From Candidatus Nomurabacteria bacterium (GTDB taxonomy: Bacteria > Patescibacteriota > Minisyncoccia > Phycocordibacterales > UBA918): DNA of 64,000 nt. The stretch is taken from NCBI GenBank assembly GCA_020632075.1, contig JACKGH010000001.1, positions 729,778-793,777 of the forward strand, in the 5' to 3' direction. Positions 5,794 to 46,588 of this stretch are shown here, piece after piece. The notes beneath the pieces were generated by a model. That model was not told the origin of the DNA and made no database searches. It saw nothing but the letters and a program-made list of their open reading frames with translations. Each line of letters begins with the position of its first letter. Position 1 is the first letter of the stretch. The position numbers and the translations under genes were made by a program.

Positions 5794-5826
5794 AAAAAGA
5801 CCCCTACCGAAAGGGGTCTATTTTAT
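5794..5826. terminator. bidirectional intrinsic terminator
   Basis: aaaaagacccct-accgaa-aggggtctatttt. Confidence 0.55.
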
Positions 5827-6543: not shown

Positions 6544-6618
6544 ACTAATAGGAACGATAACACAAAACGAATTCGTGTCTAGAATTTAGAAAAAGACTGC
6601 CGGGCTGTGAATCCTACT

Positions 6619-7633: not shown

Positions 7634-7635
7634 AC

Positions 7636-8178: not shown

Positions 8179-8180
8179 AA

Positions 8181-9272: not shown

Positions 9273-9321
9273 ATGTAGCTCTAGTATACGCTGTTCGTCG
9301 CCTGGTTTTAAGGCGCGAAAC

Positions 9322-9933: not shown

Positions 9934-9936
9934 GTC

Positions 9937-10269: not shown

Positions 10270-10275
10270 AGATCG

Positions 10276-10653: not shown

Positions 10654-10713
10654 GGGCTTTAGCATAGCATGATTACCTAATACATTGACCAGCATGACCA
10701 ATGTATTAGGTAG

Positions 10714-11472: not shown

Positions 11473-11482
11473 GTAAACACCA

Positions 11483-12232
11483 TTAACTGTACAAAGCTTG
11501 AACGTACGGCGCAATCTGCTGCCTTACCTCTGCATACCAAATCTCATACCCTCGGTCATTAGGATGAATGCCATCAGGTGCAAAATGTACCCCGCCCTGT
11601 CGCAGCGGATCACTACTTCGCTCATGAAAGAGAGGAACATGCACAACCCCAGTGGCCGCACACACCGCACCACAAGCACGAGATACTTTACGACTATGCC
11701 ATGAATACAAATATCGCACTGGCAAACGGAAAAACTGTGCCGCACCAACATTGTTTACTGACACCAGCACTGTTACGGGTGTGTTGAACTTTTGTGCAAT
11801 ACGTCTAAGAATCTGTTCCAAGCGAGCTGCAATCGTTTGGCAACGGGTCAACTTCAAAGTATCAATTCCTCCAATCTGCACGATCACCAGATCAAATGAT
11901 TCATCTGCCATTTCATCAAGCTTAGTAATAAGCTCCTTTAGACCCATTGCGTTCTGCGCAGCGTTGATAACTGTAAACTCAGGATGATCAGCAATCAATC
12001 TACCAGCAAGTGAAAAGGCGGGCGTGGTAGCGCCAGTGCCATAAGCCGTGCTGTCACCAACAATAAGTACTTTTGCTCGTGGATTCGACTGCACCTTTTC
12101 TGCCGGCCGCGCACGCTTCCCTTCCTGCACTGCACGATATCCCCGAACGCTAATTAATGACAATTCTACAAATACGAACACAATCACCACACCTAGCAAT
12201 GCAAACCCAATACTGGCACCTAGATCATACAT
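11483..12232 (-). CDS. SGNH/GDSL hydrolase with N-terminal membrane anchor (paralog 2, tandem duplicate)
   Basis: VLIVGDSTAYG and DGIHPNDRGY. Same architecture as 10714..11472. Confidence 0.7.
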   Translation of the reverse strand: MYDLGASIGFALLGVVIVFVFVELSLISVRGYRAVQEGKRARPAEKVQSNPRAKVLIVGDSTAYGTGATTPAFSLAGRLIADHPEFTVINAAQNAMGLKELITKLDEMADESFDLVIVQIGGIDTLKLTRCQTIAARLEQILRRIAQKFNTPVTVLVSVNNVGAAQFFRLPVRYLYSWHSRKVSRACGAVCAATGVVHVPLFHERSSDPLRQGGVHFAPDGIHPNDRGYEIWYAEVRQQIAPYVQALYS

Positions 12233-12383
12233 GTTGACATTATGGCATACGGATTGACAACGACAATGTACCTTTACACGCAGGTACACTTGCAGTTTGA
12301 CATCTTTTAAAGTACGACGTCTTCATCCTATATACCTAGACCAGTTAGTAACTCACTGGCAGAATAGGGAGAACGAAAACTCC

Positions 12384-13010
12384 ATGAAAAAACTACCTCG
12401 ATTACTCCTGGCGTTTGCTATGCAACTTCCAACTGCAGTATACAGCTTCTTAGTTACAACTTTTTTAATGCGGATTTGTGTGGTACGACCCTTAAAACTA
12501 GTTGTTCCTCGAGGTTCCCTTATTATTTCAAACCATCAAAGCTGGAGCGACCCGTTCCTCATAACGTACCATCTTGGATGGCGTAATGTGTTCCGTAATC
12601 TGCCCGTACATTTTCCAGTCACCTCTCATTTTATGACCATGCCATTGATCCGCTGGTATCTATGGTCACTGCAATGCTTTAACGTTGGAGACACCAATTT
12701 AGATCGTGCACGAGCACTTATTAGAATGCGCGACTTACTACAAAGCAAGCAAACGGTTATGCTGTTCCCGGAGGGTCGATGTATCAGAGACAGCAACAAC
12801 GTGGAAGAGTTTCATCGAGGTATTGATATGCTACTCATGGAAGATATTCCGCTCGTACTCGTTCGAGTAGAAAACTTTAACAACTGGTCAATTCTACCTG
12901 GATATCCAAAGCCAACTATGACACTTACTCGCCTTCCCGATCAACAAAATCTCGAAGAGAAACGAGAAGTGATTCGCTCATTTTACAAAGACACCCAATC
13001 AAAAAGATAG
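12384..13010 (+). CDS. lysophospholipid acyltransferase family protein (PlsC/OlsA-like O-acyltransferase)
   Basis: NHQSWSDP (HX4D acyltransferase motif) and FPEGR block. Start set at ATG 12384 (MKKLPRLL). First gene of a 4-gene overlapping operon. Confidence 0.7.
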   Translation: MKKLPRLLLAFAMQLPTAVYSFLVTTFLMRICVVRPLKLVVPRGSLIISNHQSWSDPFLITYHLGWRNVFRNLPVHFPVTSHFMTMPLIRWYLWSLQCFNVGDTNLDRARALIRMRDLLQSKQTVMLFPEGRCIRDSNNVEEFHRGIDMLLMEDIPLVLVRVENFNNWSILPGYPKPTMTLTRLPDQQNLEEKREVIRSFYKDTQSKR

Positions 13011-30869: not shown

Positions 30870-33800
30870 TTAATCATCTGAAACAAACCGCACAAGGAGT
30901 GTCGGATAGATCACCAGCGTCAGCACCGTCGAGAGCGATAGTCCAAACACGATCGCCCACGCGAGACCCGACCATACGGGATCGCTCGCAATGGTGAGCG
31001 AGCCGAGTACGGTCGTGAGTGAGGTGAGGAAGATCGGCCGCAGGCGCGCCTCCCCGGCTTGTATGAGTGCCTCGCGATAACTCGCGCCTGCGGCCTTGGC
31101 TTGCTCGACATACTCCAAGTAAATAATGGCGTTGTTCACCACAATACCAATCAGTGCAATAAAGCCAATGAGCGCGGTCGCCGTAAGATAGATGTTGAAT
31201 CCACTATCGAGCACGAAGAAGCCCCAGAGTATACCTACAAGCCCGAGTGGCACCGTCACCAGAATATACGCCGGTGTACTAAATTTGTTGTACTGTGCCA
31301 CGAGAAGCGCATACACCATTAAAAGTGCTACCCCCATCGCGATACCTAAGTCACGGAAGTTCTCGAGCGTCATTTCCCACTCACCGCCCCACGTGAGCGA
31401 GATGACCTGATCGTCTGGAGTGATAAGTTTCATTCCCCAGAGATCCCAGTCGGTCACCTCATACCCTGCGAGTTCTCCAGCGATAATGCGTCGCACGGTT
31501 TCGATAGTCACATACACGATCGACCGATCTTCTACTTCTGCGGTCACGTATGAAAGTGTCTGTCCATCTTCAAGATACACCGCACTCGGCCGCACTTCGT
31601 GTGAGAGTGCCAGCACTGAGCGAAGTGGCACTAGCTCACCACTCGCAGTTGCCACCTGTACCATATCAATAAAGTTTGGTGTGGCATGCACACTGCTTGG
31701 CAGTGTCAGCGTGATCGGTGTGTACTCCGAAGCATCTACACCAAGCAGTTCCCCCACCTCGTAATGACCACCAAGCATCCCGAGTACCGCCGCTACTTGT
31801 GCCGGAGAAATACCAAGTTCATTTGCTGCCGCATAGTCAAAGTCGTACCGTACTCGGCCAATTGATGCGTCATCACTCTGATAGGTATCAACGACACCTG
31901 TTACCTCACCAATAAATTCTTTGAGGTCTGTTGCTGCTTGTCGCTGGAGCGCAGCGTCGTCTGCTGACAACTTCGCCACAAAGGTCGCGCGCACCGGCGG
32001 TCCTGGTGGTTCTTCCATAAAGCGGACCGCAGTAGCGACTTCCGGCACGGCTTCAACAATGGCAACCCGTGCTGCAGTAGCGATATCAGTCGAGCTTTCA
32101 CGTCTCTCCCCAGCCGGTGTGAGATTTACCCTAAGCGTCGCCTGGTGGGCGCCACTTCGCAGTTCTGCCCCCTTGAACATACCGTTGAAATCAACAATCG
32201 GCGGCGTTGCCACAAACCGTTGCACACTTACTACATTCACATCTGCAAGTAATACATCGGTCACCGCTGCCGCGACATCTTTGGTCGCTTCAATGTCAGT
32301 ACCAACCGGCAGATCTATGTACGTATAAAACTGATCACGGTCAGCTCGCGGCAACATTTGGAAGTGCACCAGACCAGTTGCCGGCAAAATGAGCGACACT
32401 AAAAACACTAGCAATGCGCCGCGCAAGATCGTGCGCTGCACACCTTCGCGATACAAGATCTTTCGGAGCAAGCTCGTATACGCAGCTGTCACCCTATCCA
32501 TGATGCGCGAGAAGACTTTAGTAAGCCGATTCTGCTTGTCGTCAACATGCAAGATATGACTCGCAATAAATGGTGTCACTACAATCGCCACTAAGAAAGA
32601 GACCACGAGCGCCGCTGGCACAAAGAATGCGATCGGTCCCATGTATGGCCCCATCATGCCAGTAATGAAATTCATCGGGAGGAATACGATCACTGATGTG
32701 ACTGTCGAGAGCAGCAGTCCAACACCGATCTCGTCGATCGCTGTTGCGATCACACGCTCCTTGGTTTTCTCACTTGGTTCGTAGTGCCAACGTTTGAGGT
32801 GCGAATATATATTCTCAGTTGCCACGATCGCTGAGTCGACCAACAGTCCTAGCGAAAGGATGAGTGCGAACAGCGTGATGCGGTTGATCGTCTGATCAAA
32901 CAACAACCCAAGCCCAAACACCACCAAGAGTGTGACCGGGATCGCTACTAGTACGACCAGCGCCGCGCGAGTCGATAGAAACAGAAGCAGTACCACTGCC
33001 ACGATCGCGATCGAGGTGAGTAGGTTTTGGGTCAACCCAAATATCTCCGCTTCGGCAGTCGCACCATCATTGCCAACCACTACATACGAGAGTGACTGGT
33101 AGGATGGCTGCTCAACTTTCTCAGCCAGCGCAGCCAAAAGGGCCTTGCTCACGACAGGTGCACTCGAACCTTCTACTTTTGCCACCGAAAGCAATACTAC
33201 TTCCCCGCTACCCGTATCGCTGGAATGAAATACATATGAACGCTTACCAGACACTCCTTCGTACACTCGTGCAACATCTCGCATCTGCACACCAGGCGCC
33301 ACAAAAAGCTCACCTACTTCAGCGGGTGAGATTGCCAAACCATCAAACACCACGTCGATCTGGTACGGCTCTGTGCGAACACCACCAGTCACTACTCGTT
33401 TCTGACTTGCAGTAAGTGCGCTCGTTACTTGTGCAAGTGAAACACCTTCTGCTGCTAACTGGGTCGGATCGATTTCTACTACTAGACCATTTTGATAGCC
33501 GCCATAGACTGAAAGCTCGCTCACCCCATCGACCACCCCAAGCTCATGCGAAAGTGTAACCACTCGCGTGCGCAACTCTGGCATCGAAAGCTCATCTGAT
33601 CCAAAGACGATCTGTAGGATCGGAATGGTTTCCGGATTGATCTCAATGATATGCGGCAGCTTGATGTTGCCGCGCGCTAGGTAGCTATGTTGTTCAAGCT
33701 GCGACAACAGATCAAGTTTGGCTTTGGTTTTGTCGTAGCCCACTTCAAAGATGACCGTGGTCTGAATAGTTGCCCCGTCTTGGACTTGGGTATAGATATC

Positions 33801-34058
33801 ATCAACTCCTGGTACCGTGTCGATCTTCTCAACAAGTTCGTACACGACTCGCTCCAGAGCCGCGTCTGTAGTTGCTCCCGCGTACTCCACCGTGACCGCA
33901 AAGGCAGGACGAGTGATCTCTGGGTTGTATTGTTTGGGGGTAAGGAAAAATGACACCAGACCAAACACGAGGGATACCAACAAAAGCAGCATCGACAACG
34001 GTCGATTGACTGCAAAGAAATGACTGATGCGTCCAGCGATGTTTACATCATTTGCCAT
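30870..34058 (-). CDS. RND superfamily efflux pump (AcrB/CusA-like, 12 TM helices)
   Basis: 1062 aa, two large periplasmic loops. TM4 motif GLLVDSAIVATEN. Preceded by an adaptor gene and a CsoR-regulated promoter. Confidence 0.9.
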   Translation of the reverse strand: MANDVNIAGRISHFFAVNRPLSMLLLLVSLVFGLVSFFLTPKQYNPEITRPAFAVTVEYAGATTDAALERVVYELVEKIDTVPGVDDIYTQVQDGATIQTTVIFEVGYDKTKAKLDLLSQLEQHSYLARGNIKLPHIIEINPETIPILQIVFGSDELSMPELRTRVVTLSHELGVVDGVSELSVYGGYQNGLVVEIDPTQLAAEGVSLAQVTSALTASQKRVVTGGVRTEPYQIDVVFDGLAISPAEVGELFVAPGVQMRDVARVYEGVSGKRSYVFHSSDTGSGEVVLLSVAKVEGSSAPVVSKALLAALAEKVEQPSYQSLSYVVVGNDGATAEAEIFGLTQNLLTSIAIVAVVLLLFLSTRAALVVLVAIPVTLLVVFGLGLLFDQTINRITLFALILSLGLLVDSAIVATENIYSHLKRWHYEPSEKTKERVIATAIDEIGVGLLLSTVTSVIVFLPMNFITGMMGPYMGPIAFFVPAALVVSFLVAIVVTPFIASHILHVDDKQNRLTKVFSRIMDRVTAAYTSLLRKILYREGVQRTILRGALLVFLVSLILPATGLVHFQMLPRADRDQFYTYIDLPVGTDIEATKDVAAAVTDVLLADVNVVSVQRFVATPPIVDFNGMFKGAELRSGAHQATLRVNLTPAGERRESSTDIATAARVAIVEAVPEVATAVRFMEEPPGPPVRATFVAKLSADDAALQRQAATDLKEFIGEVTGVVDTYQSDDASIGRVRYDFDYAAANELGISPAQVAAVLGMLGGHYEVGELLGVDASEYTPITLTLPSSVHATPNFIDMVQVATASGELVPLRSVLALSHEVRPSAVYLEDGQTLSYVTAEVEDRSIVYVTIETVRRIIAGELAGYEVTDWDLWGMKLITPDDQVISLTWGGEWEMTLENFRDLGIAMGVALLMVYALLVAQYNKFSTPAYILVTVPLGLVGILWGFFVLDSGFNIYLTATALIGFIALIGIVVNNAIIYLEYVEQAKAAGASYREALIQAGEARLRPIFLTSLTTVLGSLTIASDPVWSGLAWAIVFGLSLSTVLTLVIYPTLLVRFVSDD

Positions 34059-34060
34059 AA

Positions 34061-35647
34061 CTAAAGCGAAATACTTACTGCTGGTACAAGCGGCGTCTCA
34101 CTGACTCTATCGAGCTCTACATACAACACATCGCCGGCATCGTAGACAATCTCAGCTCGAGCTGTAGCGCCAGTTTCATACTGCACAAACGCACCATCAG
34201 TATCAAAATGCATGTATGATCGAGGCACTGTCCGCACCGCATCATCGGCTGCAATAGCAATATCTCCTGAAAGACTGCTACCGACCTGGAGCACCGCAGT
34301 CTGATCAAGCGCGATCACTACTACTCCGCTGCCACCATTTGCTACTGCACTAAATCGATCAACATGCCCAACCAATGTATCGTCTACAACAAATGATTGT
34401 CCTACCGCCACATACGGTAACAAGTATGATGGGACTGATACTTCTAATTCACGAGCGCCGTTTCCAACGAGCGTTAGGAGTGGCGTACCGGCAGTAACAT
34501 ACTGACCCTCATCCACAAGCACTTCTGAAACCACACCAGAAAAGGGTGCTGTTGGGCGGCCGAGCGATAGCTCGGCCGCCACAACAGCCTCACCGGCCGC
34601 TGCCACGGCGTCGCTCTGAGTAGCGATCGCAGCTGCGTATGAAGCTTGAGTTGCCGCCAGTTCTTCATCGAGAGCGGAGACTGCCACGGCAGTATCCTGC
34701 CCTACCGCATCCTCAAGTACTCCATCCACTACTTGCGAGAATACTGCCTGTGCACTTGAAAGTGACTGCGCTGCACTAAGTGCACCACTTCGTTTTGAGA
34801 GATATGCTGCCCGTACCTCATCGGTCACATAGACTGCCTGCCGATCAAATACATCGGACTCTGCTGTTGCATACAAATTAGTTACAGCCGCCAGCTGTTC
34901 ACCAAGGAGAGAGGCTGTCAGTTCTAATTCTGCAGGATTTGATCCATCTAGTTCAGCAACAAGAGACTGTAGATCAACCCCGCTTGCTCCTACGGTCGCA
35001 ATCCCGCCACGAAAATAACTTGGCACCGATCCGTAGAGATCAGTCACCACCGCATCGTAGAGTCGTAATCCCTTTGCCGAAAACAGATGTCGATTATTGT
35101 TCACATAATCAATCGCAGCAGTCAACTCAAGTACACCTTGCTCTATTGTATTTGAAAATGTGGTCGATACCTCTGTCACTCGAGAGTCATTTCCGACAGT
35201 GCGCAAAGCTGCGATCTCGGCCGCCGAGCGGGCCTGGTACCCAGCTTGTGTCGCCTGCACTGCCCGAAGCTCAGTATTCAAAGACTGGTTCAACTGCCCC
35301 AACTCCCGCTCGGCGGCAGCCAATGCCAACCGTGCATCAGCTACTGGCGTCGACTGCACTGCCAATACCTGACCGACAGATACCGCTGCACCCTCATACA
35401 CTCGGAGGTCACGCACCACTCCGGCCGTCTCTGCATACACGATCGTACTGTCCGCAGCCTCCACCACTCCAGACACACAAAGCGGTAACACACCCGTAGT
35501 CAGATATACCGCTTCTTGTAGAGCTCGTTCCTCTACCGGAGACACCACCTCCTCACCACGCACCACTCCATATCCTACAAAGACAATTAAAATACCTGCA
35601 GCAGTGGCCGCCAGTTCTTTCATTCTCACACTTGTACTAAATTTCAT
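34061..35647 (-). CDS. RND efflux periplasmic adaptor (membrane fusion protein)
   Basis: N-terminal anchor, Ala-rich coiled coil and barrel/MP domains. 3-nt gap to the RND gene. Confidence 0.7.
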   Translation of the reverse strand: MKFSTSVRMKELAATAAGILIVFVGYGVVRGEEVVSPVEERALQEAVYLTTGVLPLCVSGVVEAADSTIVYAETAGVVRDLRVYEGAAVSVGQVLAVQSTPVADARLALAAAERELGQLNQSLNTELRAVQATQAGYQARSAAEIAALRTVGNDSRVTEVSTTFSNTIEQGVLELTAAIDYVNNNRHLFSAKGLRLYDAVVTDLYGSVPSYFRGGIATVGASGVDLQSLVAELDGSNPAELELTASLLGEQLAAVTNLYATAESDVFDRQAVYVTDEVRAAYLSKRSGALSAAQSLSSAQAVFSQVVDGVLEDAVGQDTAVAVSALDEELAATQASYAAAIATQSDAVAAAGEAVVAAELSLGRPTAPFSGVVSEVLVDEGQYVTAGTPLLTLVGNGARELEVSVPSYLLPYVAVGQSFVVDDTLVGHVDRFSAVANGGSGVVVIALDQTAVLQVGSSLSGDIAIAADDAVRTVPRSYMHFDTDGAFVQYETGATARAEIVYDAGDVLYVELDRVSETPLVPAVSISL

Positions 35648-35653
35648 GTGTGG

Positions 35654-35677
35654 TAATATACCCCATGGGGTATATTA
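35654..35677. promoter_or_regulatory. CsoR-type operator: 24-bp perfect palindrome TAATATACCCC|ATGGGGTATATTA
   Basis: GC tract flanked by AT-rich inverted arms, as described for CsoR operators (ATACCC...GGGTAT). Sits between the divergent adaptor-RND operon and csoR. Confidence 0.6.
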
Positions 35678-35714
35678 CTGTCAAATCACTTCTCTACCCT
35701 GATACAATTATTCT

Positions 35715-35972
35715 ATGGACACAGATACCAAACAATTACTCAATCGCTTGAGCCGGGCCGAAGGACAAGTACGCGCACTGCGCGTCGCTCTGGAACGTGG
35801 TGAAGTGACTGATTGCAAGGCGTTTATGTCACAGATCAAAGCTGCCCGCTCTGCCCTCAAGCACACGAGTGAACAGTTCGTGCTACAGCACATTCACAAG
35901 TGCCAGGCACTTCCAAGTGCAAAACGAGATGAACAGATCGCCGAAGCTTTGAAAGTTCTCGCCAGTGACTAA
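35715..35972 (+). CDS. csoR: CsoR/RcnR family metal-sensing transcriptional repressor
   Basis: LLNRLSRAEGQVRAL helix and conserved Cys/His ligands (C44, H70, C74 equivalents: TDCKAF...HIHKC). Confidence 0.8.
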   Translation: MDTDTKQLLNRLSRAEGQVRALRVALERGEVTDCKAFMSQIKAARSALKHTSEQFVLQHIHKCQALPSAKRDEQIAEALKVLASD

Positions 35973-36023
35973 CGTAGTACTGAGCAGAGAGCACCTTTTA
36001 CGAAACCAATTGAAATTTGAACT

Positions 36024-36836
36024 ATGAACACAACAGCAATTATCGCTGCCATTATTGCCCTCTTGGGAGGATTTGTGGCCGGAAACGCTATCCAAGATGA
36101 ATCGACTGACATCACCCAAGTTACCAACCAAGCTCGTGAGCGCTTTATGAGTGAAAATCCACCAGCCCAAGACTTCGTCTCAATGCGCCCAGGAATTGAA
36201 GAATTACCAGTTCAGACACTCTCACAAGAAGAACTTGACGGACTACTCCTCATGCGTGAAGAAGAGAAACTTGCTCGAGACGTATACCAGACACTCTACG
36301 AACAGTGGGGGCTGAACATCTTTTCCAACATCGCACAAAGCGAACAGACCCACACCGAAGCAGTTCGCGAACTGCTTGAGAAGTACGACATCACTGACCC
36401 AGTGACTAACGACACGATCGGCGTCTTCCAGAACGAAACCATGCAACAGCTCTACAACGATCTCGTTGCGCAAGGAAGTGAATCAGAAGTTGCTGCTCTT
36501 AAGGTAGGCGCAACGATCGAAGATCTTGATATCAAAGACCTGATGGACCTGACTGCTGAGACAGACAATGAAGACATCAAACTCGTGTACGAAAACCTCA
36601 CTCGCGGCTCACGCAATCACCTGCGCTCATTTACCCGCCAGCTCACCATGCGCGGTGAAAGCTATGAAGCGCAGTACATTAGCGCTGAAGACTACCAAGC
36701 AATTCTCGCGAGCGACCAAGAAACCGGTAATGGAGATCATGACCACGGCGGCAACATGCAAAACGGTGGTGGCCAAGGTCAAGGAACCGGCAGCGGTAAT
36801 CGCGGCTGGGGTGGTGGCCAGGGACGCAATCGATAA
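36024..36836 (+). CDS. DUF2202-like ferritin-like secreted protein with Gly-rich tail
   Basis: N-terminal TM/signal segment. EEEKLARDVYQTLYEQWG...SEQTHTEAVRELL ferritin-like helices. C-terminal GNGDHDHGGN...GGGQGQGTG tail. Confidence 0.6.
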   Translation: MNTTAIIAAIIALLGGFVAGNAIQDESTDITQVTNQARERFMSENPPAQDFVSMRPGIEELPVQTLSQEELDGLLLMREEEKLARDVYQTLYEQWGLNIFSNIAQSEQTHTEAVRELLEKYDITDPVTNDTIGVFQNETMQQLYNDLVAQGSESEVAALKVGATIEDLDIKDLMDLTAETDNEDIKLVYENLTRGSRNHLRSFTRQLTMRGESYEAQYISAEDYQAILASDQETGNGDHDHGGNMQNGGGQGQGTGSGNRGWGGGQGRNR

Positions 36837-36878: not shown

Positions 36879-37145
36879 TTATTTCTTTGTGTTCTTCACG
36901 CGAGCGGTGATGCGTGACTTCTTGCGCGCTGCGGTGTTGTCCTTGATGACACCACGCTTGGCTGCTTTGTCAATCGCCTTGTAAGCAGTCGGGAGAAGTT
37001 CTTTTGCTTTCTTCTCATCACCGGCTGCTACCGCCTTTGCGATGGCCTTTTCAGCATCCTTCATCGCACTCTTACGGCGTACATTGAACACCTTTTTGCG
37101 CTCTGAAGCTCGATGGGCCTTTGCTGCTCCTTTAGTAATTGGCAT
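36879..37145 (-). CDS. rpsT: 30S ribosomal protein S20
   Basis: 88 aa, Lys/Ala-rich, with KAHRASERKK...NTAARKKSR. Confidence 0.85.
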   Translation of the reverse strand: MPITKGAAKAHRASERKKVFNVRRKSAMKDAEKAIAKAVAAGDEKKAKELLPTAYKAIDKAAKRGVIKDNTAARKKSRITARVKNTKK

Positions 37146-37239
37146 ATCTAATTTAATTGAGTGCGCCTACTCTACCGTAGGAAGACCAAAAAGGCAAGGG
37201 TTTGGGACCGCAGACTTCTCGGGTACAATACATACACAT

Positions 37240-37815
37240 ATGATACGAAGTCTGACTGGAGAAATTGATGATATTGGCGAAAATTGGCTCGTGGTGAACG
37301 TGCATGGTGTTGGTTACTTGGTAGGCACTCCAACACTACAGAATCATTTCACTGAAAATAGCACCATAACGCTCCATACGTACCTCGCAGTGCGCGAAAC
37401 CGCACTTGACCTCTACGGCTTCCCTCACAAAACCGAACTTGAAATGTTTGAGTTACTGCTCGGTATACCTAAGATCGGACCGAAATCTGCCCTACAGATC
37501 CTCTGCCAAGCAACTCCCTCCCTACTGGCGGAAGCAGCACAAAAAAATGACGGCGTGTACTTACACAAACTCTCTGGCATTGGTAAAAAGACCGCCGAAA
37601 ACATCACACAATATCTTCATTCAAAACTGGCACAATTACCGACCACGATCATTACGACACAAGATGACCTCACTGCCGTACAAACTGACGCGATCGATGC
37701 GCTGATCGCACTAGGATACGACACGACCACTGCCCGAGAGACCGTTCTCGAATTGAGTAATACCGACGCAACGGTGAATTCTCTGGTTACAAAAGCACTT
37801 AAACAGATCCAGTGA
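37240..37815 (+). CDS. ruvA: Holliday junction DNA helicase RuvA
   Basis: MIRSLTGEI...VVNVHGVGYLV N-terminus, HhH motifs LLGIPKIGPKSA and LSGIGKKTAENI. ORF 37042.. trimmed to ATG 37240 to clear rpsT. Confidence 0.85.
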   Translation: MIRSLTGEIDDIGENWLVVNVHGVGYLVGTPTLQNHFTENSTITLHTYLAVRETALDLYGFPHKTELEMFELLLGIPKIGPKSALQILCQATPSLLAEAAQKNDGVYLHKLSGIGKKTAENITQYLHSKLAQLPTTIITTQDDLTAVQTDAIDALIALGYDTTTARETVLELSNTDATVNSLVTKALKQIQ

Positions 37816-37818
37816 TAC

Positions 37819-39219
37819 TTACTGTAGCTCATTCTCTCTCACCCGAGTATCAGGATCATAGGAAGTAGGCTCGAGTCGACGGATGAATAGGTACGCAAAC
37901 AGCGATGTGGCGATCACGATCGCTGCATAGAACCAAGGTGACTTACCTGGCACACTCGGCGCTACTGTGTGAAGCAGTGTTACCGGCCCAAAAAACGAAC
38001 TGCATGTTCGCTCTTTTTCGCAGCCAAATGATTGCTCGACGACCGCCACCTTCTGCAGCTCTTGATCATCAATGGCCTCACCAAGAAGAGGACCACTATA
38101 TAGTTCTGTTGTGAGAGTAAAGTCTGCCAGCTCCCATTCTGGAGAGAAGGAGTAATACTTCTTGTCCCATAGATCCTTGCTAGCAATCATCTCCCGTGAC
38201 AATTCTTTCTCAGCACGAGACAAGACGAATGCTACTTGGACCGGTTTGGCAAACTGTTTTTTGGTCGCACCCAGCACCGTCTGATCAACACAAGCCACGA
38301 CTTCGCTTGTTTTGGTCAACGGGTACTCACTTAAGCCAACCGCTGAGATGTACGGCAAGAGCACACTTTCCTCAACTGCCCCCACCCTCAGCACAGCAAC
38401 AGTAACGGGCGTAAAGTGATCAGCTGCCACCATCCCCGCATAGACGGTATACACCCCGTCTCCCTGCAAGGCAGCGTCAAGCTCTAACTGCTGCTTTGAT
38501 TGCGCGGCCAACACAGCTGGTTCACGAAGCTCAGTCAAGACCGCTGCCCCTTTTGGAACTATACCCTGCACCACACTCGCAAGAACCGTTTGCACAACTT
38601 CATTTGCAAGGTCATTATTTGCGCTACGCATTGATAGCGATAACGCATCTTCAGATCTAAGAATAATGCTTTGTCCGATACTCTTAAGACCGTTCACAAA
38701 CAGTTCAAAACTGACATCCTGTTCTCGTGGAGTTCGTTTCACAAGCGTGGCCATTGATTGCGTATCTGCTGTGAACTGACTGAACAAAGCCGTTTCATCA
38801 CCTTGTGCAATGAGCGCCTTTACAAAGTATGTACCAGCAGGAACCATTGCTAGGTCTGACTGCACCGATATTTGCCTCACCGTTCCAGGTTCAAGCTCAT
38901 AGGTGTCTGACAGTACGGTCCAGTACACTGGTGCTGCTGCGTACTGACTAGTATACAATCCAAGCCCAACCCTTACACCACCAAAATGGTACTTCGGATC
39001 AGTATTTTCGACCTCAACGACACCAACAAAACTGTCAGATACCTCAATCGGATCTTGTGCTGTATCAATATACACCTGCAATCCTCCGACAATTGGACAT
39101 TCTTTTGTAGGAATTTCAGTTACCTGAGCGCTGACGACCTGACCAATAGATACTACTCCCAAAGAAATAAGCACTATGGTAACACTAGCAAACTTTCTCA
39201 GTGATACTTTGAAAATCAT
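37819..39219 (-). CDS. secreted/anchored hypothetical protein, paralog A (signal peptide + C-terminal TM anchor)
   Basis: Shares blocks with 42248..43687: ECPIVGG/SCPIESA, YHFGGVRVGLGLY/YAVGGIRVGVFLF, VKALIAQGDETAL/LRLVAVQGDETDL, YISAVGLSEYPLT/YLSQVGLTEYPMT. Confidence 0.6.
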   Translation of the reverse strand: MIFKVSLRKFASVTIVLISLGVVSIGQVVSAQVTEIPTKECPIVGGLQVYIDTAQDPIEVSDSFVGVVEVENTDPKYHFGGVRVGLGLYTSQYAAAPVYWTVLSDTYELEPGTVRQISVQSDLAMVPAGTYFVKALIAQGDETALFSQFTADTQSMATLVKRTPREQDVSFELFVNGLKSIGQSIILRSEDALSLSMRSANNDLANEVVQTVLASVVQGIVPKGAAVLTELREPAVLAAQSKQQLELDAALQGDGVYTVYAGMVAADHFTPVTVAVLRVGAVEESVLLPYISAVGLSEYPLTKTSEVVACVDQTVLGATKKQFAKPVQVAFVLSRAEKELSREMIASKDLWDKKYYSFSPEWELADFTLTTELYSGPLLGEAIDDQELQKVAVVEQSFGCEKERTCSSFFGPVTLLHTVAPSVPGKSPWFYAAIVIATSLFAYLFIRRLEPTSYDPDTRVRENELQ

Positions 39220-39258
39220 ACTGCATTTGGTCGTAGTCGAAAACGATCGACCGCTTCC

Positions 39259-42255
39259 CTAGACTTCTGTTACTTCAGGTACCATTTCTACACGCACCTG
39301 TTCCACAAATGACGTGTTTGTGAGTGGCTCTATACAACGAAGTTCGAACACACTGGTGCTAGTGAGTATTCCTGTGGTAAACGAATCCGTATAACTAGGT
39401 CCGACATCCAATGTATTAAAGCTCTCGTTAAGGCCGCCAGCACCACTGACCGTACAATTTAGTGAGTAGGTTGCGTCCACGTCCCAATCGATCGTGACAG
39501 ATTGTGAACGACGGATCAATAACTTATCAACTGAAATATCCATCATTGGGTGCGGTACCGGAATGTTCACCGTTGTACAGCTTGTGTTGTTGGCAGTATC
39601 CGGGTTTGATTCTGGGAACGTATCACCATCCAAATTCACTTGACTACAGACCGTATGTGAACCAAATGGCACTTCATCAACAGTCTGAGCCAATGTTGGT
39701 GATTGTACTGGAGCACCAGGGGTTACGGGCGCAGTAAGTGAACCGTTGAAGTAGTCAACTTCTGTCTCAATATCTGACAACCCTAAACTTGGCATCAAAG
39801 TCAAGATAGCTTTATATGAGACGTGGCTATCTGTAGGCAATTCACCACCAAACCAAATACCTCCAATTTGGTGCATTGCATTTTCGATCACCATAAGGAT
39901 ATCAACATCGTTGTAGACTCCATTGACCGGGTCTTCAGTAGCAGCTGCCAAACTGACCGCTGGACTCGCAGACACCAGATCAACCGCCTCGATACAATAT
40001 CCAGTATCTGGATCAGCAATGAATCCATCAGGAGCATCGACGACCAGGTCAGTCTCAGGATCGATACATTCACCAACTGATACTACCGTCTCTGCCACAA
40101 GTGCATCTGGTGGTGGCAACTTGACCAGTACAGTACTTTCATCTGAAACCGAATCTGCAGTTCTTCCACACATCATTCCAAAAGCGGTGCTAGTTGACAC
40201 ATCCGCGTCTAGTAGACCCATAGCACTTGAACCACTGTACCAGGAGTACGAAGAACCATCTTCACGTACCGCAGGTATCTCGGCACAGTATGTTGTCTCT
40301 TCACTGATCCACATTAGCGGTACCGTCACGAAACCAATCGCTTTGTTGAATGGAACATCTACACTTGCTCCATCGCCCGCACCAAAGTAAATGTTTGAGA
40401 AACGACAGAACTCACTCCCTTCTCTTTCACAAGCGATCGTAACTATTTCACCATCATCAAGTGGCACATCACTGGCAACGAGTGCGGTCTTTAGTGTGCC
40501 TGAGTTACACTCAGCACTTGGACTATCAGGACTATCAGCTACCAATGTACCTATCAACCCACTCTTTTCGGTACTGAACTCAAAAGTCGAGGCTCCGTCG
40601 TTCTCATCACAGTACGTAAAGTGGATGTTGTATCGATCTGATCCATCAAATGGGTGCGAGAATGGAAACAAGATCTCACCCATACTTGTAACCGCAAGGT
40701 AAGTACCGTCGTCATAGAAACCTCCACCACCAACCTGCACCGCTTGTAACTCATCGACATCATACGAAACTGCATTCGCGTACATATACGTCTGCGGTTG
40801 ATCAGCCACTACAGCTGAATCAAGGACTTCAATAACTACACTTTCACTATCCATTCCATTATCCCGTTCCTCAGCGGTTCCATATAGAAAGTCATATTCA
40901 CGCATACATTCGACATCTAACACAGTATCTGAGGAGAGGAAGAAGCCAAACGTATCATTTCCTTCACCTGAGATGGGCGGATCTAGATGCTCCCAACCTG
41001 GTAAAACATAGTATGTAGCATGACCCATTTCTGCTAATGTGCTTCCATAAAACGCCCTTAACCAACAGTAACTGGCATTGTCTCTGTCCACCTGCACTTC
41101 TACCCACGCCTCCCCTGTAATTGGGTCACGTTCAACCTGAGCTGGTGCAGAAATATCCACAGTCACCGGAGGCAAAGAGGCTCGGTCCCACTCAGTCACA
41201 GAATTAACCCCAGGCGGCAATGCCACTCCAATGGTAATTGAGGTAGTGGTTGATACATATGGGTACGTAACTCCATTGAATACAATTTCTTCACGAAAAC
41301 AAGAGATCTCAAACGTTGTTGTTGCAATGATCTCAATATCTTCCATATATCCACTCTTGTACCAGCTTGGCACACCCCAACCAGTTGGGGTTTTTATTTT
41401 GACACCATCTTCATCATACGCAGCATAATTACATCGATACACGCTTTCTGCCTCAAAACCGATATCTACGTACGCATATCCGTACAAATAGTCCTGATAT
41501 ACAGTCGGATAATCTGGAGACCAGATATCAATTGTCGGGTCAGCCGGGGGCGTACCGTAGGTAATGTTCAAGGTGATCGACTGAGTGCTCTCTGTGCCGT
41601 TCGCGTCGTTGTAGCAGGTGATGTAGAACGTGGTCGTTTCAGTTATGCGGTCAAATGGTGTGCCATCAAAAACAACAATACCAGTAGTTCCTAAAGGTCC
41701 TGTATACCCGCTACTTACATTGGCCACAACCGGAACACCCGGGTTAGACTCCGTCTCATACCACACGTAAGAGCAACGTGTTGCATACTGTGTATCCCAC
41801 TGCACTATCACACTTGAGAGAGTCCCCGTTATCCCCCAGATCGTTCGGTCGGTACCCTCAGGAAGCTCCATGGTGATTTCAGGTTCGATCAGCACCTCAA
41901 CTGAGTCGGTGCCTTGCGTACAAGTCAACACATAACTCGTATCGGTGTCTGCCGGAGGTACCACAGTAATAGAACCACTGACAGGCAATACAGACGTATC
42001 AATATCGCCCACACCATTATTGATATAGCAACCTTGCGCATCATCGATATACCACTCAAGTGTGATCGGTGTTCCGTTTACGATCTCAGCCGTATTACCG
42101 CCATTAACAGTGAGAATGAGTACCGGTGTTAGCGCATGAGCAACCTGTGCAGACACTACCCAAAGAAAGAGTGTCACTACCCCAAAAACTGCAGTCAACA
42201 GTTTGGTTACTTGGAATGAAAATAGTTTTGATTTCATAGGCACAATATTATTCAC
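39259..42255 (-). CDS. giant secreted surface protein (998 aa) with repeated Ig-like/beta-sandwich-looking segments
   Basis: Signal peptide. Cys-paired repeats (VLTCTQGTDSVEV... / LRCIEPLTNTSFVEQV). Thr/Ser/Asp-rich. No enzymatic motif. Confidence 0.7.
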   Translation of the reverse strand: MNNIVPMKSKLFSFQVTKLLTAVFGVVTLFLWVVSAQVAHALTPVLILTVNGGNTAEIVNGTPITLEWYIDDAQGCYINNGVGDIDTSVLPVSGSITVVPPADTDTSYVLTCTQGTDSVEVLIEPEITMELPEGTDRTIWGITGTLSSVIVQWDTQYATRCSYVWYETESNPGVPVVANVSSGYTGPLGTTGIVVFDGTPFDRITETTTFYITCYNDANGTESTQSITLNITYGTPPADPTIDIWSPDYPTVYQDYLYGYAYVDIGFEAESVYRCNYAAYDEDGVKIKTPTGWGVPSWYKSGYMEDIEIIATTTFEISCFREEIVFNGVTYPYVSTTTSITIGVALPPGVNSVTEWDRASLPPVTVDISAPAQVERDPITGEAWVEVQVDRDNASYCWLRAFYGSTLAEMGHATYYVLPGWEHLDPPISGEGNDTFGFFLSSDTVLDVECMREYDFLYGTAEERDNGMDSESVVIEVLDSAVVADQPQTYMYANAVSYDVDELQAVQVGGGGFYDDGTYLAVTSMGEILFPFSHPFDGSDRYNIHFTYCDENDGASTFEFSTEKSGLIGTLVADSPDSPSAECNSGTLKTALVASDVPLDDGEIVTIACEREGSEFCRFSNIYFGAGDGASVDVPFNKAIGFVTVPLMWISEETTYCAEIPAVREDGSSYSWYSGSSAMGLLDADVSTSTAFGMMCGRTADSVSDESTVLVKLPPPDALVAETVVSVGECIDPETDLVVDAPDGFIADPDTGYCIEAVDLVSASPAVSLAAATEDPVNGVYNDVDILMVIENAMHQIGGIWFGGELPTDSHVSYKAILTLMPSLGLSDIETEVDYFNGSLTAPVTPGAPVQSPTLAQTVDEVPFGSHTVCSQVNLDGDTFPESNPDTANNTSCTTVNIPVPHPMMDISVDKLLIRRSQSVTIDWDVDATYSLNCTVSGAGGLNESFNTLDVGPSYTDSFTTGILTSTSVFELRCIEPLTNTSFVEQVRVEMVPEVTEV

Positions 42256-43687
42256 GCTTATCTGATCCGTTTACCTCGCCCTCTTCCTGATCATTTTCAT
42301 CTGCACTTTCCTCTTCCTCCTCTTCTTCCTCTGTCTTTTCTCGGGGAGGGATTGTGCGTAAGATCACATACACAAACAGTAGGATAACCACCACGACACT
42401 GCCGTACAAAATTATCGGCTGTACTTTGATCTCTGCTTCCTGCGCTACTGTACCTGCAACCACTTCGGTACCCTGGCCGATACACACATCAAACCCAGCA
42501 CAATTGAAAGTGTATTCGTATGAATCCACTACTGAAAGCAATTCTACGAGTGATTCTGTTGGCAAATCCTGCAGCGAAGCCGCTGAGTTGAACTGTTGAT
42601 GTAACAGATCAACAGTCAATGTGAAGTTCTTGTACTCCTTTTGAGGATGAACTTGGAAGAAGTTCTTCGCAGACACTTCACTACTGAGCACCTCTGCATT
42701 GAAGATGCCGCCTTCACCGATCGCAGACACCTTCACACCAATAGCCCCGGTGAAATGATCAACTCGATCCTCGGCTCCGGTATACCGTACACACATCACG
42801 ATCTCCCCCTTTTCGGTCATTGGATATTCAGTCAGACCAACTTGCGACAAATACGGCCATGAGATCACTTCATCAGTCTCAGGTCCTGCAACAACATGAG
42901 TAAGGATCGGTTGGAAGACACCTGGAGTCAGAACACCTGCAAACAATGCTGATTCCTTGGTGAGTACATAGTGCTGAGAAACCTCAACTGTTCGAGCGGA
43001 ACCAGGGACGAGTTTCACAGAGTCTACAGACTCATCTTTCACCGCAGCACCAAGTGGCACCCGACCCATCGTAACAACGGTCAGCACAGAGCTATCGGTC
43101 AGCGGCGTATCAGAATCATTCGTAACTACAATATCACCAGCGATCACACCCTCCGTCGCATCAGTTGAGGTGAACGAAAGAGCTGCTGATGATCGTTGTT
43201 CTCCAGTCTTAGTAAGACGCACACCTGAAACATCTGACGGCAACAACACTGCACCGAGTAAGTCAGTTTCATCTCCTTGCACAGCCACTAGCCGAAGCTC
43301 ATACGCCCCACCCTCAAGTGTGGAGGTGTCGACAGTCACAGGAATGGACTTTCTCTCCCCTGCCATCAATTGATACCTATCAGGTAACACGCTCCAGTAC
43401 GATGGACTGTCTGCCCCCTCAGCAAAGAGAAATACACCGACCCGAATTCCACCAACTGCATACGATGAAAGATTCTGGATCGTCACTTCTTCGCTAAAAG
43501 CACTCGTGACCTCATACGCTTCAGGAGAGTTAAGGAAAAGCGCGGTTACGGCTGACTCGATCGGACAGCTTCTCGAAGGCGCAACCCCCTGCTCAGCAAG
43601 ACCGACCACTGGCATTAGGGCTATTGATAAATTAATGAGTAATGCAAAAAATACACTGAGTGGTTTATTGGCTGTTTTATAGTACAT
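42248..43687 (-). CDS. secreted/anchored hypothetical protein, paralog B, with poly-Glu tail after the C-terminal TM
   Basis: Start trimmed to ATG 43687 (MYYKTANKPLSVFFALL... signal). C-terminal TM then EEEEEEEESADENDQEEGE tail. Paralog of 37819..39219. Confidence 0.6.
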   Translation of the reverse strand: MYYKTANKPLSVFFALLINLSIALMPVVGLAEQGVAPSRSCPIESAVTALFLNSPEAYEVTSAFSEEVTIQNLSSYAVGGIRVGVFLFAEGADSPSYWSVLPDRYQLMAGERKSIPVTVDTSTLEGGAYELRLVAVQGDETDLLGAVLLPSDVSGVRLTKTGEQRSSAALSFTSTDATEGVIAGDIVVTNDSDTPLTDSSVLTVVTMGRVPLGAAVKDESVDSVKLVPGSARTVEVSQHYVLTKESALFAGVLTPGVFQPILTHVVAGPETDEVISWPYLSQVGLTEYPMTEKGEIVMCVRYTGAEDRVDHFTGAIGVKVSAIGEGGIFNAEVLSSEVSAKNFFQVHPQKEYKNFTLTVDLLHQQFNSAASLQDLPTESLVELLSVVDSYEYTFNCAGFDVCIGQGTEVVAGTVAQEAEIKVQPIILYGSVVVVILLFVYVILRTIPPREKTEEEEEEEESADENDQEEGEVNGSDKRE

Positions 43688-43815
43688 ATGGTTCCCCGCG
43701 ACTCGTACCCTAAGCATACGAGATAAACCAAATTCCGACGGCTTACTTATACACATTTGCCTATCTTCGACACCAACGTGCACCGAACGCAAAACCAGCA
43801 TATACTTAAGAACAT

Positions 43816-45102
43816 ATGGATACCGCACGACAGCTTCTGAAACGAATCATCCCGAAGCGAATTTTTACTTTTTTACAGCCGTATTATCACTACCTACTCT
43901 CATATATAGGTGCAACACGCTACCACCACCCTTCTCGTGAGATCGTGGTTATCGGGGTAACCGGCACCAAGGGTAAATCATCAGTCACTGAAATCCTTAC
44001 CCACATCCTCCGCACTGATGGCAAGAAAGTTGCCTCCCTTTCAACGATCCAGTTTTCGATTGGCGATACCACCGAACGAAACTTATACAAGATGACCATG
44101 CCAGGTCGTTTCTTTGTGCAAAAATTCCTGCGCGAGGCGGTTGATGCTGGCTGCACCCACGCCGTGGTTGAGATGACCTCAGAAGGTGCCAAGCAGTACC
44201 GACACAAGTTCGTCGACATCGATGCGCTTATTTTTACCAATCTCGCCCCGGAACACATTGAATCACACGGCTCATTTGAGAATTACAAAAACGCGAAACT
44301 CTCGATCGCAGCGGCCGTAGCAGATTCACCGAAGCGACCGCGATACATCGTTGCTAATATAGACAATGAACACGGGGCAGATTTTTTGAACTTCGATATT
44401 GAACACAATCTCCCCTACTCTCTTAAGGACCTCTCGCTCTACACTCTTCATAAAGATAGTGTGAGCATGGTCTTTGGGGACACTACTGTGCGAGTGCCAC
44501 TTGTTGGACTATTTAATGTCTATAACAGTCTTGCTGCAATCACCCTCGCACGTGCGTTTGGTGTTTCGCTCGATACGATCCAAAAAGCCTTTCGTACCCT
44601 ACCGCCACTACGTGGTCGAGTAGAACATTTCGCGAGTCCGAAGGATGCCGCCAAGCAGGTCACAGCTGTTGTCGACTACGCCCACACGCCAGATTCGCTC
44701 ACTCAATTCTACGAAGCATTCCCCGATAAATATAAAGTTTGTGTCCTTGGCAACACTGGTGGTGGCCGTGACACCTGGAAGCGGCCAGAAATGGGTGCGA
44801 TCGCAGAAAAATACTGTAATCAAGTTATCCTCACTAACGAGGACCCATACGACGAAGATCCGGAAAAGATCATTACTGAAATGCAAAAAGGCATGCAGGA
44901 TGATGCACATGTCGAAGTGATTATGGATCGTCGCGAGGCCATTGCACGCGCACTAGAACTCACTCCACAAGACGGCTATACACTTATTTCTGGCAAGGGT
45001 ACTGATCCGTACATTATGGGACCAAATGACACCAAGACCCCATGGAGTGATGCAGAGGTAGTTCAAGAACTCCTTGCTGAACTTCCAAAAGCTACTCAAT
45101 AG
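43816..45102 (+). CDS. murE: Mur ligase family protein (MurE-like UDP-MurNAc-tripeptide synthetase, short N-terminus)
   Basis: P-loop GVTGTKGKSS, DYAHTPDSL and GGGRDTWKRPEMGAIAEK blocks matching MurE. Lacks the usual N-terminal domain 1. Confidence 0.65.
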   Translation: MDTARQLLKRIIPKRIFTFLQPYYHYLLSYIGATRYHHPSREIVVIGVTGTKGKSSVTEILTHILRTDGKKVASLSTIQFSIGDTTERNLYKMTMPGRFFVQKFLREAVDAGCTHAVVEMTSEGAKQYRHKFVDIDALIFTNLAPEHIESHGSFENYKNAKLSIAAAVADSPKRPRYIVANIDNEHGADFLNFDIEHNLPYSLKDLSLYTLHKDSVSMVFGDTTVRVPLVGLFNVYNSLAAITLARAFGVSLDTIQKAFRTLPPLRGRVEHFASPKDAAKQVTAVVDYAHTPDSLTQFYEAFPDKYKVCVLGNTGGGRDTWKRPEMGAIAEKYCNQVILTNEDPYDEDPEKIITEMQKGMQDDAHVEVIMDRREAIARALELTPQDGYTLISGKGTDPYIMGPNDTKTPWSDAEVVQELLAELPKATQ

Positions 45103-46588
45103 CAATTGTTGTCTCACGCACCAACCACCCATCACCCGCTGTCACTACGGTGGGTGTTTTGATTGTGCCAGCCGGCGTATAGACTTTGCTACTCACAAAA
45201 TTCCCTGCGCTCACAATATATGTATCGTTCCATACCGCCTGCACGCGGAGCATCTGATCAAGCTGGTACCACAGACTTTCTGGCTCATTAAACCACGCAT
45301 GAGAGATTGGATGCGCCACAAACGGCTGATCTGGCCGCTCTGTCGTGAGACGTCGCACACTGAGTGGATTCACACTCTCAAAACAAAACAGCACGCTCGG
45401 AAACTCACTCGGCAATTCAGCTTGTGAAATAAGATTTCCCGGCACCAATCCCATATCCCCTTTCACCGCATCAATGACCGCACTATACCCAAACCATTTG
45501 GCAAGCAACACAAACAACGACGCAAGATATTCTCCTTGTGGCACCAAGTAGCCTTTGTGCACCTTCTCGATCTGGTCAGTGGTTGAATCATACAAGTACG
45601 CCTGCAACACCCTACCCACCGGCAAAGTAATCACTTCGGTGTCTATCACGATCGTCTGTGGGTTGTTATACCGAAGTTGAAACTGAAACTTCTCCGAGCC
45701 AAGTGATTCTTTCTGATTAAAGAAGCCAGACCCTTCTGGAAGCACTACATACGCCGGATCCAACTCAAGTGCTACCACCATCGCCTCCCCCAGATTTTCT
45801 CGCACGCGGTGCAAACCAGCTTGGTCACGCAAGGTTGCAGTATCAGTCTTGGTTTCAATGATTGAAATTCGTGTCTCATATGTAGCCTGAATTACTGGCG
45901 AAGCTACCGACACAAAACTGGTCAGATACACCACCACCAACATTGCAATACCGTACCCAGCCATTTGTTTTGTTTTTGAAAGATGAAGCAGCACTAGCGC
46001 AAACAACACTCCTGCTGCACTAAGGATGTATACCCCTCCCCACTTCGCAAGGAGTAGCAGTAATGGGTGTTCAGCCAATACATAGCCAAGATATCCAAAA
46101 CTAAATGAAATATTTAAGTATCCGCCAGGACCGATAGCGAGTACTGAATATGCAAATGAACCAAAGATTTCAGCCAACACCCAAATTAGCGGTGTAAGTA
46201 AAAACATTGCACTAGCCTTATGATCCGCAAAGAGCTTTCTAAAAAGCCGCACCCCAGACACAACCACAGGACCACAGAGACCAATAGTGATCGCAGCTGC
46301 TACCCACGTGATACCAATCGCCAGTATCTGAGACTTGGCCGCCTCAAGTGGCAGCCAACTGATCGGATACGTCGACCAAAACCAAAACACTACAATACTC
46401 ACCTTAATAGTCCACGCCAACCACGAACCGATATAGAGAGACTTACGACCCATTTCAGAGATTGCTAAATGCAAAAAATACGCTGCACCAAGAATGGTCA
46501 CGATCCATAAAAACGGTGATAGGAAACCGATCCCCATTAAGACCCCTGAAGTGACCCACTGCAACCAACGATTATGTAACCAATCCAT
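45092..46588 (-). CDS. lnt: apolipoprotein N-acyltransferase (Lnt)
   Basis: N-terminal polytopic domain plus C-terminal CN-hydrolase domain (VVLPEGSGFF with catalytic E). Confidence 0.75.
   Translation of the reverse strand: MDWLHNRWLQWVTSGVLMGIGFLSPFLWIVTILGAAYFLHLAISEMGRKSLYIGSWLAWTIKVSIVVFWFWSTYPISWLPLEAAKSQILAIGITWVAAAITIGLCGPVVVSGVRLFRKLFADHKASAMFLLTPLIWVLAEIFGSFAYSVLAIGPGGYLNISFSFGYLGYVLAEHPLLLLLAKWGGVYILSAAGVLFALVLLHLSKTKQMAGYGIAMLVVVYLTSFVSVASPVIQATYETRISIIETKTDTATLRDQAGLHRVRENLGEAMVVALELDPAYVVLPEGSGFFNQKESLGSEKFQFQLRYNNPQTIVIDTEVITLPVGRVLQAYLYDSTTDQIEKVHKGYLVPQGEYLASLFVLLAKWFGYSAVIDAVKGDMGLVPGNLISQAELPSEFPSVLFCFESVNPLSVRRLTTERPDQPFVAHPISHAWFNEPESLWYQLDQMLRVQAVWNDTYIVSAGNFVSSKVYTPAGTIKTPTVVTAGDGWLVRETTIAIE

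Follow-up and report, generated by a model that had tools for sequence, protein, structure and literature searches.

We have analysed three co-directional open reading frames (ORFs), designated B, G and A in the order in which they are read, on the minus strand of a 64,000-nucleotide stretch (the window) of the genome of Candidatus Nomurabacteria bacterium (assembly GCA_020632075.1, contig JACKGH010000001.1, positions 729,778 to 793,777). The conserved unit at this position consists of two genes, a membrane-anchored stalk (B) followed by a large multidomain string protein (G), and not of a triplet; A appears to be a later-acquired second stalk, found only in the window genome among the loci examined. 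Two uncatalogued families are defined, the stalk, with ~90 representative clusters, and the string, which carries a new cysteine-pair Ig-like repeat. We tentatively propose that the region encodes a clade-specific, two-component anchor-and-display complex of the cell surface. The composition of the cell envelope in the candidate phyla radiation (CPR)/Patescibacteria has been described as unclear (PMC5220378), and surface layers (S-layers) have been reported on some Patescibacteria species without identification of the proteins involved (PMC13293708). As the stalk-string pair occupies a fixed position in the core genome throughout one small clade of Kaiserbacteria-type bacteria, is predicted to be exported and diverges several-fold faster than its neighbours, it may form the outermost layer or the contact surface of these ultra-small cells, a proposal that can be tested, and is therefore also a candidate for host or phage specificity.

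Conservation of the pair was investigated in 14 loci, comprising the window and 13 related Patescibacteria loci that extend from close relatives to the most distant stalk subfamilies. A stalk gene is located immediately upstream of a string gene in all 14, the two genes being separated by 2-31 nt or overlapping, and, where the flanks are visible, a divergent Mur-ligase gene is observed on one side and convergent ruvA-rpsT on the other. One stalk-string pair is present at 12 of the 14 loci. At the 10 single-pair loci that reach the downstream flank, the string gene is followed directly by ruvA (by a partial reverse-strand gene in L018) with no stalk-like gene in between. A is considered a lineage-specific extra copy of the stalk because a lone stalk downstream of the string is absent from the other loci. 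In L013, a further Kaiserbacteria-type contig, the whole pair is tandemly duplicated in the order B1-G1-B2-G2 (3491..12528; 447 and 1029 aa, then 486 and 1031 aa), and the copies are mutually 29% and 40% identical, as diverged as orthologues between genomes. Such co-duplication is as expected for a cognate unit. A previous, sequence-only reading of the window had described these genes as a cell-surface module in which a giant protein is bracketed by duplicated partners. The secreted and membrane-anchored proteins do belong together and all three consecutive ORFs are present as described; the bracketed arrangement, in contrast, is not conserved, the 13 related loci having the stalk-string unit, and G at 998 aa is large rather than giant, one relative having a length of 585 aa.

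Both members of the pair diverge much faster than the genes that surround them. Between the window and the related loci, identity is 28-34% for the stalk (B) and 32-40% for the string (G), compared with 73-76% for the Mur ligase, 54-79% for RuvA, 72-87% for ribosomal protein S20 and 70-76% for the RND pump. Fast divergence relative to neighbouring genes is typical of exposed surface proteins. Word-indexed homology searches yielded very few homologues of the stalk, owing to the rapid divergence of the family; no stretch of the stalk alignment is conserved enough for a pattern scan, and a scan of a genome collection returned one locus. When 1.84 billion representative proteins were scanned in full with a HMMER profile, 90 stalk-family matches were obtained, 73 of them below 1e-30; nearly all of the 90 are 430-505 aa in length and aligned end to end. 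The stalk family is small, architecturally uniform and clade-restricted, the named relatives being Kaiserbacteria, a metagenome-assembled genome (MAG) labelled Nomurabacteria and Ca. Elulimicrobium, all Patescibacteria.

B and A are paralogous over their full length (BLASTP E 1e-34, 26% identity), as had been suggested previously, and each of the blocks on which that suggestion was based, CPI, GG(V/I)RVG, QGDET(A/D)L, GL(S/T)EYP(L/M)T and a C-x5-C pair, occurs in both proteins. Hydropathy analysis also bears out the proposed topology of an N-terminal signal, a C-terminal transmembrane (TM) helix and a charged tail, poly-Glu in one of the two. By the Kyte-Doolittle scale, A and B each have an N-terminal hydrophobic segment and one C-terminal TM segment (residues 428-446 in A and 425-443 in B), followed by R/K-rich and then acidic tails. 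The layout of B comprises a predicted signal peptide (~1-31), β-sandwich domains at residues ~45-160, 165-270 and 275-395, the C-x5-C pair, the TM helix and the poly-Glu tail. The AlphaFold2 (AF2) model of B, obtained from a 4-sequence alignment (pLDDT 63.5, pTM 0.57), contains a signal helix, three β-sandwich domains, a poorly modelled C-x5-C linker and a TM helix at 426-445, with a low-confidence linker of ~30 residues (396-425) preceding the helix. A has the same architecture and keeps all 25 positions that are invariant in an 8-sequence stalk alignment, suggesting that it is functional. In a neighbour-joining tree A is not sister to B; as this tree is star-like, it does not resolve the age or origin of the A/B duplication. 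No further paralogues of A, B or G were detected in the window by tblastn.

The terminal features of A and B are general properties of the family. An N-terminal hydrophobic segment is present in 58 of 65 stalk representatives and a C-terminal TM segment in all 65, followed by R/K in most. In 31 of the 65 the tail ends in (D/E)ELQ-COOH, and a second tail class ends in MH(E/I/M)P(E/Q)-COOH; conservation of these ends among family members P0014-P0087 implies a cytoplasmic partner. A keeps the consensus tail, PWFY-TM-RRLxP...ELQ-COOH, whereas B, the positional orthologue, has poly-Glu instead. In both genomes with two stalks, that of the window and that of L013, one copy carries ELQ and the other a divergent tail. 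The difference between the A and B tails suggests that the anchors have subfunctionalised.

G had been characterized as a Thr/Ser/Asp-rich string of Cys-bracketed β-sandwiches, a description with which composition, structure modelling and profile comparison all agree. T, S and D account for 10.3, 8.6 and 7.9% of residues, respectively, D+E number 144 vs 32 for K+R, and 20 Cys are present. A single hydrophobic segment is detected, at the N-terminus (Kyte-Doolittle). An identical hypothetical protein is encoded by a Candidatus Kaiserbacteria MAG, the window organism being assigned to this group of the CPR, and nine homologues of G have 36-40% identity. The AF2 model (9 sequences, mean pLDDT 76) is all-beta, with 9-10 sandwich domains. 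Self-BLAST of G revealed no repeats; these emerged only by profile-profile comparison with hhalign, in which domains D2, D3, D4 and D6 are homologous repeats (probability 80-98%, E 4e-14 to 1e-5), pairwise probabilities being 98% for D3/D4 (E 4e-14), 98% for D3/D6, 95% for D2/D3 and 94% for D4/D6. A Cys pair is invariant in each of these four repeats in the alignment, and the repeat pattern, W-x-S-x-N-A-T-x-C ... T-T-T-x-F-x-V-x-C, is uncatalogued. D5, D7 and D8 stand apart, and any relationship between D1 and D9 is weak at best (hhalign probability 34%). D5, in which D550, E551, D553, G554, S556, C609 and C617 are invariant columns, lies in a portion of G to which the 585-aa L012 string shows no BLAST match and may represent a Ca- or glycan-binding module. 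N-glycosylation sequons are mildly enriched in G (12 vs 6.5 ± 2.3 expected) and were not used as evidence.

Conservation of the string is concentrated at its C-terminus. BLASTP of G against the string of L012, a distant relative, aligned residues 844-997 only (40% identity, E 3e-25) and the L018 string likewise matches that of L012 only at the C-terminus. The C-terminal ~150 residues are the best conserved region of the string alignment (blocks 0.60/0.52/0.52), and full-length string homologues all end in VE(M/V)VP(D/E)xxE(I/V/L)-COOH, which corresponds to 39262..39291 in G. String length ranges from 585 to 1041 aa among relatives, and the number of N-terminal repeats varies. We propose that the C-terminal module serves in docking or assembly. 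G differs from sortase-anchored adhesins, in which a C-terminal LPXTG precedes a hydrophobic segment and a basic tail: it has no LPXTG, the only LPxxG-like string being LPVSG at residue 90, and no C-terminal hydrophobic segment. A wall-binding domain was not detected by Pfam in G or 8 homologues.

None of the three proteins matches a recognised family, in accordance with the earlier assessment. Nothing significant was detected for A, B or G in Pfam, NCBIfam, PHROGs or PADLOC: Pfam assigned zero families to A and G and only noise on the TM/tail region of B (MAP17, TMEM154), and NCBIfam zero to all three. The housekeeping families that a profile search might have returned, LytR-CpsA-Psr, SLH, CWB2 and other wall-binding domains, were not matched in Pfam or NCBIfam. 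Searches of PDB chains by sequence and by profile were empty or returned noise, among 9 string and 59 stalk homologues Pfam detected only a sub-threshold WxLIP_HBD match, and no paper on these proteins was found in the literature. Structure prediction, put forward earlier as a check, yields three β-sandwich domains for B and an all-beta string for G. Foldseek comparison of the two models with PDB and BFVD returned generic β-sandwich strings only, with TM-scores of 0.1-0.2, including alpha-2-macroglobulin MG arrays, complement, transglutaminase barrels, FN3/Ig strings, a haloarchaeal S-layer protein and phage fibres. These matches confirm the class of fold that was predicted but allow no closer assignment; with scores at this generic level, assignment to alpha-2-macroglobulin, complement, transglutaminase, mastigoneme, GhpA or phage fibres was rejected. 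A phage or defence origin is similarly without a PHROGs or PADLOC match for A, B or G, and the BFVD fold matches are generic Ig strings. The models thus resemble Ig-like/E-set strings (CARDB/NEW3, Big, FN3, MG) in their tandem all-beta sandwich domains, and Foldseek lists only such proteins; however, none of those Pfam families is significant on A, B or G. Distant stalk relatives of ~500 aa match NPCBM_assoc/NEW3 weakly. Coordinates of the genes and of their principal features are given in Table 1.

Table 1. Genes and features of the stalk-string region, in positions of the window.
Feature	Position	Strand	Basis or description
Gene A, extra stalk paralogue	37819..39219	minus	ORF, 466 aa
A tail	37822..37881	minus	PWFY-TM-RRLEP...ENELQ-COOH, family consensus
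A TM helix	37882..37938	minus	Hydropathy
Gene G, string protein	39259..42255	minus	ORF, 998 aa from GTG
G C-terminal module, last two domains	39262..39726	minus	Residues ~844-998, ends VEMVPEVTEV
G D6, fourth repeat copy	40114..40371	minus	hhalign
G D5, distinct domain	40372..40809	minus	Residues 483-628; invariant CDENDGxS and a further Cys pair
G D2-D4, tandem Cys-pair repeats	40810..41892	minus	Residues 122-482
Gene B, stalk/anchor protein	42248..43687	minus	ORF, 479 aa from ATG
B poly-Glu tail	42251..42334	minus	After TM and RTIPPREK
B TM helix, residues ~425-445	42353..42415	minus	Kyte-Doolittle maximum 3.02 at 425-443; AF2 helix 426-445
Extended -10-like motif TGTGTATAA	43747..43755	minus	Divergent Mur-ligase/B intergenic region

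Assignment of the start codons affects the predicted export of the stalk. A 526-aa, GTG-started version of B (to 43828) is not supported, as the extension runs into the divergent Mur-ligase gene and the GTG is upstream of a promoter-like motif conserved across the orthologous loci, while the ATG at 43687 is preferred because orthologues share the MYxYK-type N-terminus that it gives. In the public annotation (455 aa, P0013) B begins at Met25 and thereby loses its signal peptide; the present analysis corrects this start-codon call. For G, the NCBI start is an ATG at 42237 (KC877_00980, 992 aa), 6 codons past the GTG. The B stop and the G start overlap or abut, and a gap of 39 nt separates G from A.

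The extended -10-like motif in the Mur-ligase/B intergenic region, TGTGTATAA, is likely the operon promoter. As one occurrence of such a motif in the window is by itself not above chance, the evidence for this assignment is cross-locus conservation: TGTG(T/C)ATAA recurs at the corresponding position in 8 of the 9 orthologous intergenic regions that were aligned, with L006 having TAGGTATGA instead. A second motif, TTGCACG, is likewise present in 8 of the 9 regions, L012 diverging, and in the window both motifs lie within 43743..43785 on the minus strand. The spacing between TTGCACG and TGTG(T/C)ATAA varies from 0 to about 30 nt among the 9 regions, indicating that the two do not constitute a simple -35/-10 pair. 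Scans with promoter and terminator consensus sequences detected fewer sites than in shuffled sequence and were uninformative.

Combined, these observations are consistent with the following scheme. B, and similarly A, would be a type I membrane protein in which three extracellular Ig-like domains form a stalk and a short tail is exposed to the cytoplasm. G would be co-transcribed from the shared promoter, exported by the Sec pathway and, having no anchor of its own, retained on the cell by the stalk via its conserved C-terminal two-domain module. The acidic, variable, disulfide-stapled N-terminal repeats of G would project outward as the outermost protein layer, and exposure of this layer to hosts, to phages and to the environment would account for the very fast divergence. 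An anchor-and-display complex fits the invariant pairing, the co-duplication, the anchorless G and the presence of one conserved and one variable end. The fixed core-gene position across the family argues more for a constitutive coat of the envelope, either S-layer-like or fibrillar, than for an accessory adhesin. Several points weigh against this interpretation. Adjacency alone may reflect co-regulation, and contact between B and G is something we infer; stalk and string share no homology (hhalign, probability 1%) and no recognisable interaction motif. Signal-peptide cleavage is predicted from n/h/c-region features and a conserved A-Q ending the h-region rather than by a trained predictor, and the stalk AF2 model, with the pLDDT and the small alignment given above, is only moderately confident. 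The resemblance of the stalk to WxLIP_HBD, considered below, is below the Pfam threshold and the string has no WxL domain. In addition, 20 Cys are unusual for a bacterial S-layer protein.

The proposed complex can be compared with the WxL system of Firmicutes, in which WxLIP, with its signal peptide, pair of IgG-like domains and TM helix, is proposed to hold large secreted WxL proteins (PMC10599100). In WxL gene clusters (Csc), WxLIP, consisting of DUF916, DUF3324 and a TM helix, is encoded with small and large WxL proteins (PMC10599100, PMC1534035). In both systems an operon of a monoderm cell encodes a surface complex of several components; the stalk resembles WxLIP in its signal peptide, tandem Ig-like domains and C-terminal TM helix, and in both the large secreted protein is proposed to dock by a conserved C-terminal domain with its N-terminal domains outward. 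PF11797 (WxLIP_HBD/DUF3324) is matched by 14 of 59 stalk members, always in domain 1 and at profile positions 44-119 of 138, with scores of 16-21 bits vs a cutoff of 28.9 and a best E of 2-3e-4, A and B of the window being without a match. The systems differ in other respects. DUF916 (WxLIP_PGBD) was not found in the 59 stalk members at E <= 0.1, the stalk has three domains, not two, and its HBD-like domain is membrane-distal and not beside the TM helix. No WxL domain was detected in G or 8 homologues (Pfam, E <= 10), no small WxL or LPXTG partner gene is present at the stalk-string locus, and the phylum is Patescibacteria, not Firmicutes.

It is possible, but in our estimation rather unlikely, that G is a host-attachment adhesin of an episymbiotic Kaiserbacterium and that A and B are alternative membrane anchors for it. 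The length of G, a multi-Ig string whose N-terminal repeats vary in number among relatives (585-1041 aa), divergence that is extreme with respect to neighbouring genes and the weak resemblance of stalk domain 1 to the WxLIP 'host binding domain' would all suit an adhesin. However, the pair is fixed in a core-gene neighbourhood and single in 12 of the 14 loci, whereas accessory adhesins usually occur in multiple copies, have a patchy distribution and lie in variable regions, and no lectin or known adhesin domain was detected by Pfam. CPR bacteria are generally epibionts, which is in accord with an attachment function, but host attachment in the Patescibacteria studied has been ascribed to type IV pili (PMC13293708).

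An unlikely alternative is that the proteins are co-regulated but physically independent, B and A being receptors or sensors that signal inward and G a separate secreted or wall-associated protein. The cytoplasmic partner implied by the (D/E)ELQ-COOH ends of 31 of 65 tails and by the second class, MH(E/I)P(E/Q), is compatible with such a role, as is the lack of detectable stalk-string homology or an interaction motif. Independence does not, however, account for an adjacency that is invariant or for duplication of the pair as a unit, and it leaves G without any retention device of its own. Furthermore, the stalk tail comprises only 11-33 residues and has no signalling domain.

A more specific form of the anchor-and-display interpretation, which we regard as doubtful at present, is that the pair constitutes the structural S-layer of the Kaiserbacteria clade, a two-component lattice held by TM stalks and convergent with SlaB/SlaA of the Sulfolobales. 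SlaB is 475 aa long, with a signal peptide, three β-sandwich domains and a TM segment at 448-470, whereas the outer protein, SlaA, is large and beta-rich (PMC10903991). As in that system, adjacent genes encode a large, soluble, beta-rich outer protein and an anchor of ~475 aa (B has 479 aa, TM 425-445); B has a signal peptide, three β-sandwich domains and a C-terminal TM helix, as judged from AF2 and hydropathy, and the outer protein is more variable than the housekeeping expectation in both. In contrast, no sequence similarity was detected in PDB profile searches and neither SlaA nor SlaB is among the top 50 Foldseek matches. SlaB contains a 132-aa coiled-coil helix, which is trimerising, where B has only the ~30-residue linker of the model; gene order is reversed, and the organisms that carry the pair belong to another domain of life and have a peptidoglycan wall. 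If the S-layer interpretation were correct, the layer would use none of the known bacterial S-layer anchoring devices and would provide the first molecular identity for the surface layer that has been observed on cells of the CPR. The stalk duplicate, having a different tail, would then tie the lattice to distinct intracellular partners.

The suggestion that A and B are chaperone-like partners, assembly factors that fold or polymerise G in the manner of pilus chaperones and not anchors, appears very unlikely, and nothing points to such a role specifically. The Ig-like domains of the stalk recall those of chaperone-usher chaperones, the Foldseek list includes one CFA/I chaperone-adhesin entry (rank 50), and the conserved, strand-like C-terminal peptide of G could in principle join strand exchange. 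Nevertheless, the stalk remains anchored in the membrane permanently and its cytoplasmic tail is conserved, genes for an usher, a sortase or a pilin-like protein are absent from the locus, and the Foldseek similarities are generic (TM-scores of about 0.2). An alpha-2-macroglobulin-like role, as a protease trap or in defence of the envelope, suggested by bacterial and eukaryotic alpha-2-macroglobulin/TEP/C3 MG-domain arrays as the top Foldseek PDB matches for both models, is rejected as largely refuted and highly improbable, since the TM-scores, 0.09-0.22, reflect a generic β-sandwich-string likeness, a motif scan detected no CxEQ thioester motif (C[GL]EQ) in G, the all-beta model has no helical thioester domain and no member passes the A2M Pfam families, 1 of 59 matching PF00207 at E 0.079.

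Additional observations were made on the genes that neighbour the pair. A polytopic protein of 498 aa is encoded at 45092..46588 on the minus strand and shows only a weak match, below cutoff (E 9e-5), to the N-terminal membrane domain of apolipoprotein N-acyltransferase, with no match to the hydrolase domain. It is 33-43% identical where the Mur ligase is 73-76% identical, and it is syntenic with the surface pair in 7 related loci. On the opposite flank, the mechanically derived ruvA ORF (37042..37815, 257 aa) overlaps rpsT; the true ruvA start is near 37240, as Pfam RuvA_N begins at residue 1 of 37240..37815. A metal-efflux-like cluster is located at 30870..36836, in what is presumably a single-membrane CPR genome. 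It encodes an RND pump of the AcrB type (1062 aa), an adaptor resembling HlyD/CusB (528 aa), a metal-sensing repressor of the CsoR type and a DUF2202 protein whose tail is rich in Gly and His. The pump, adaptor and repressor genes are found beside ruvA/rpsT in four related loci, two of which also contain the DUF2202 gene.

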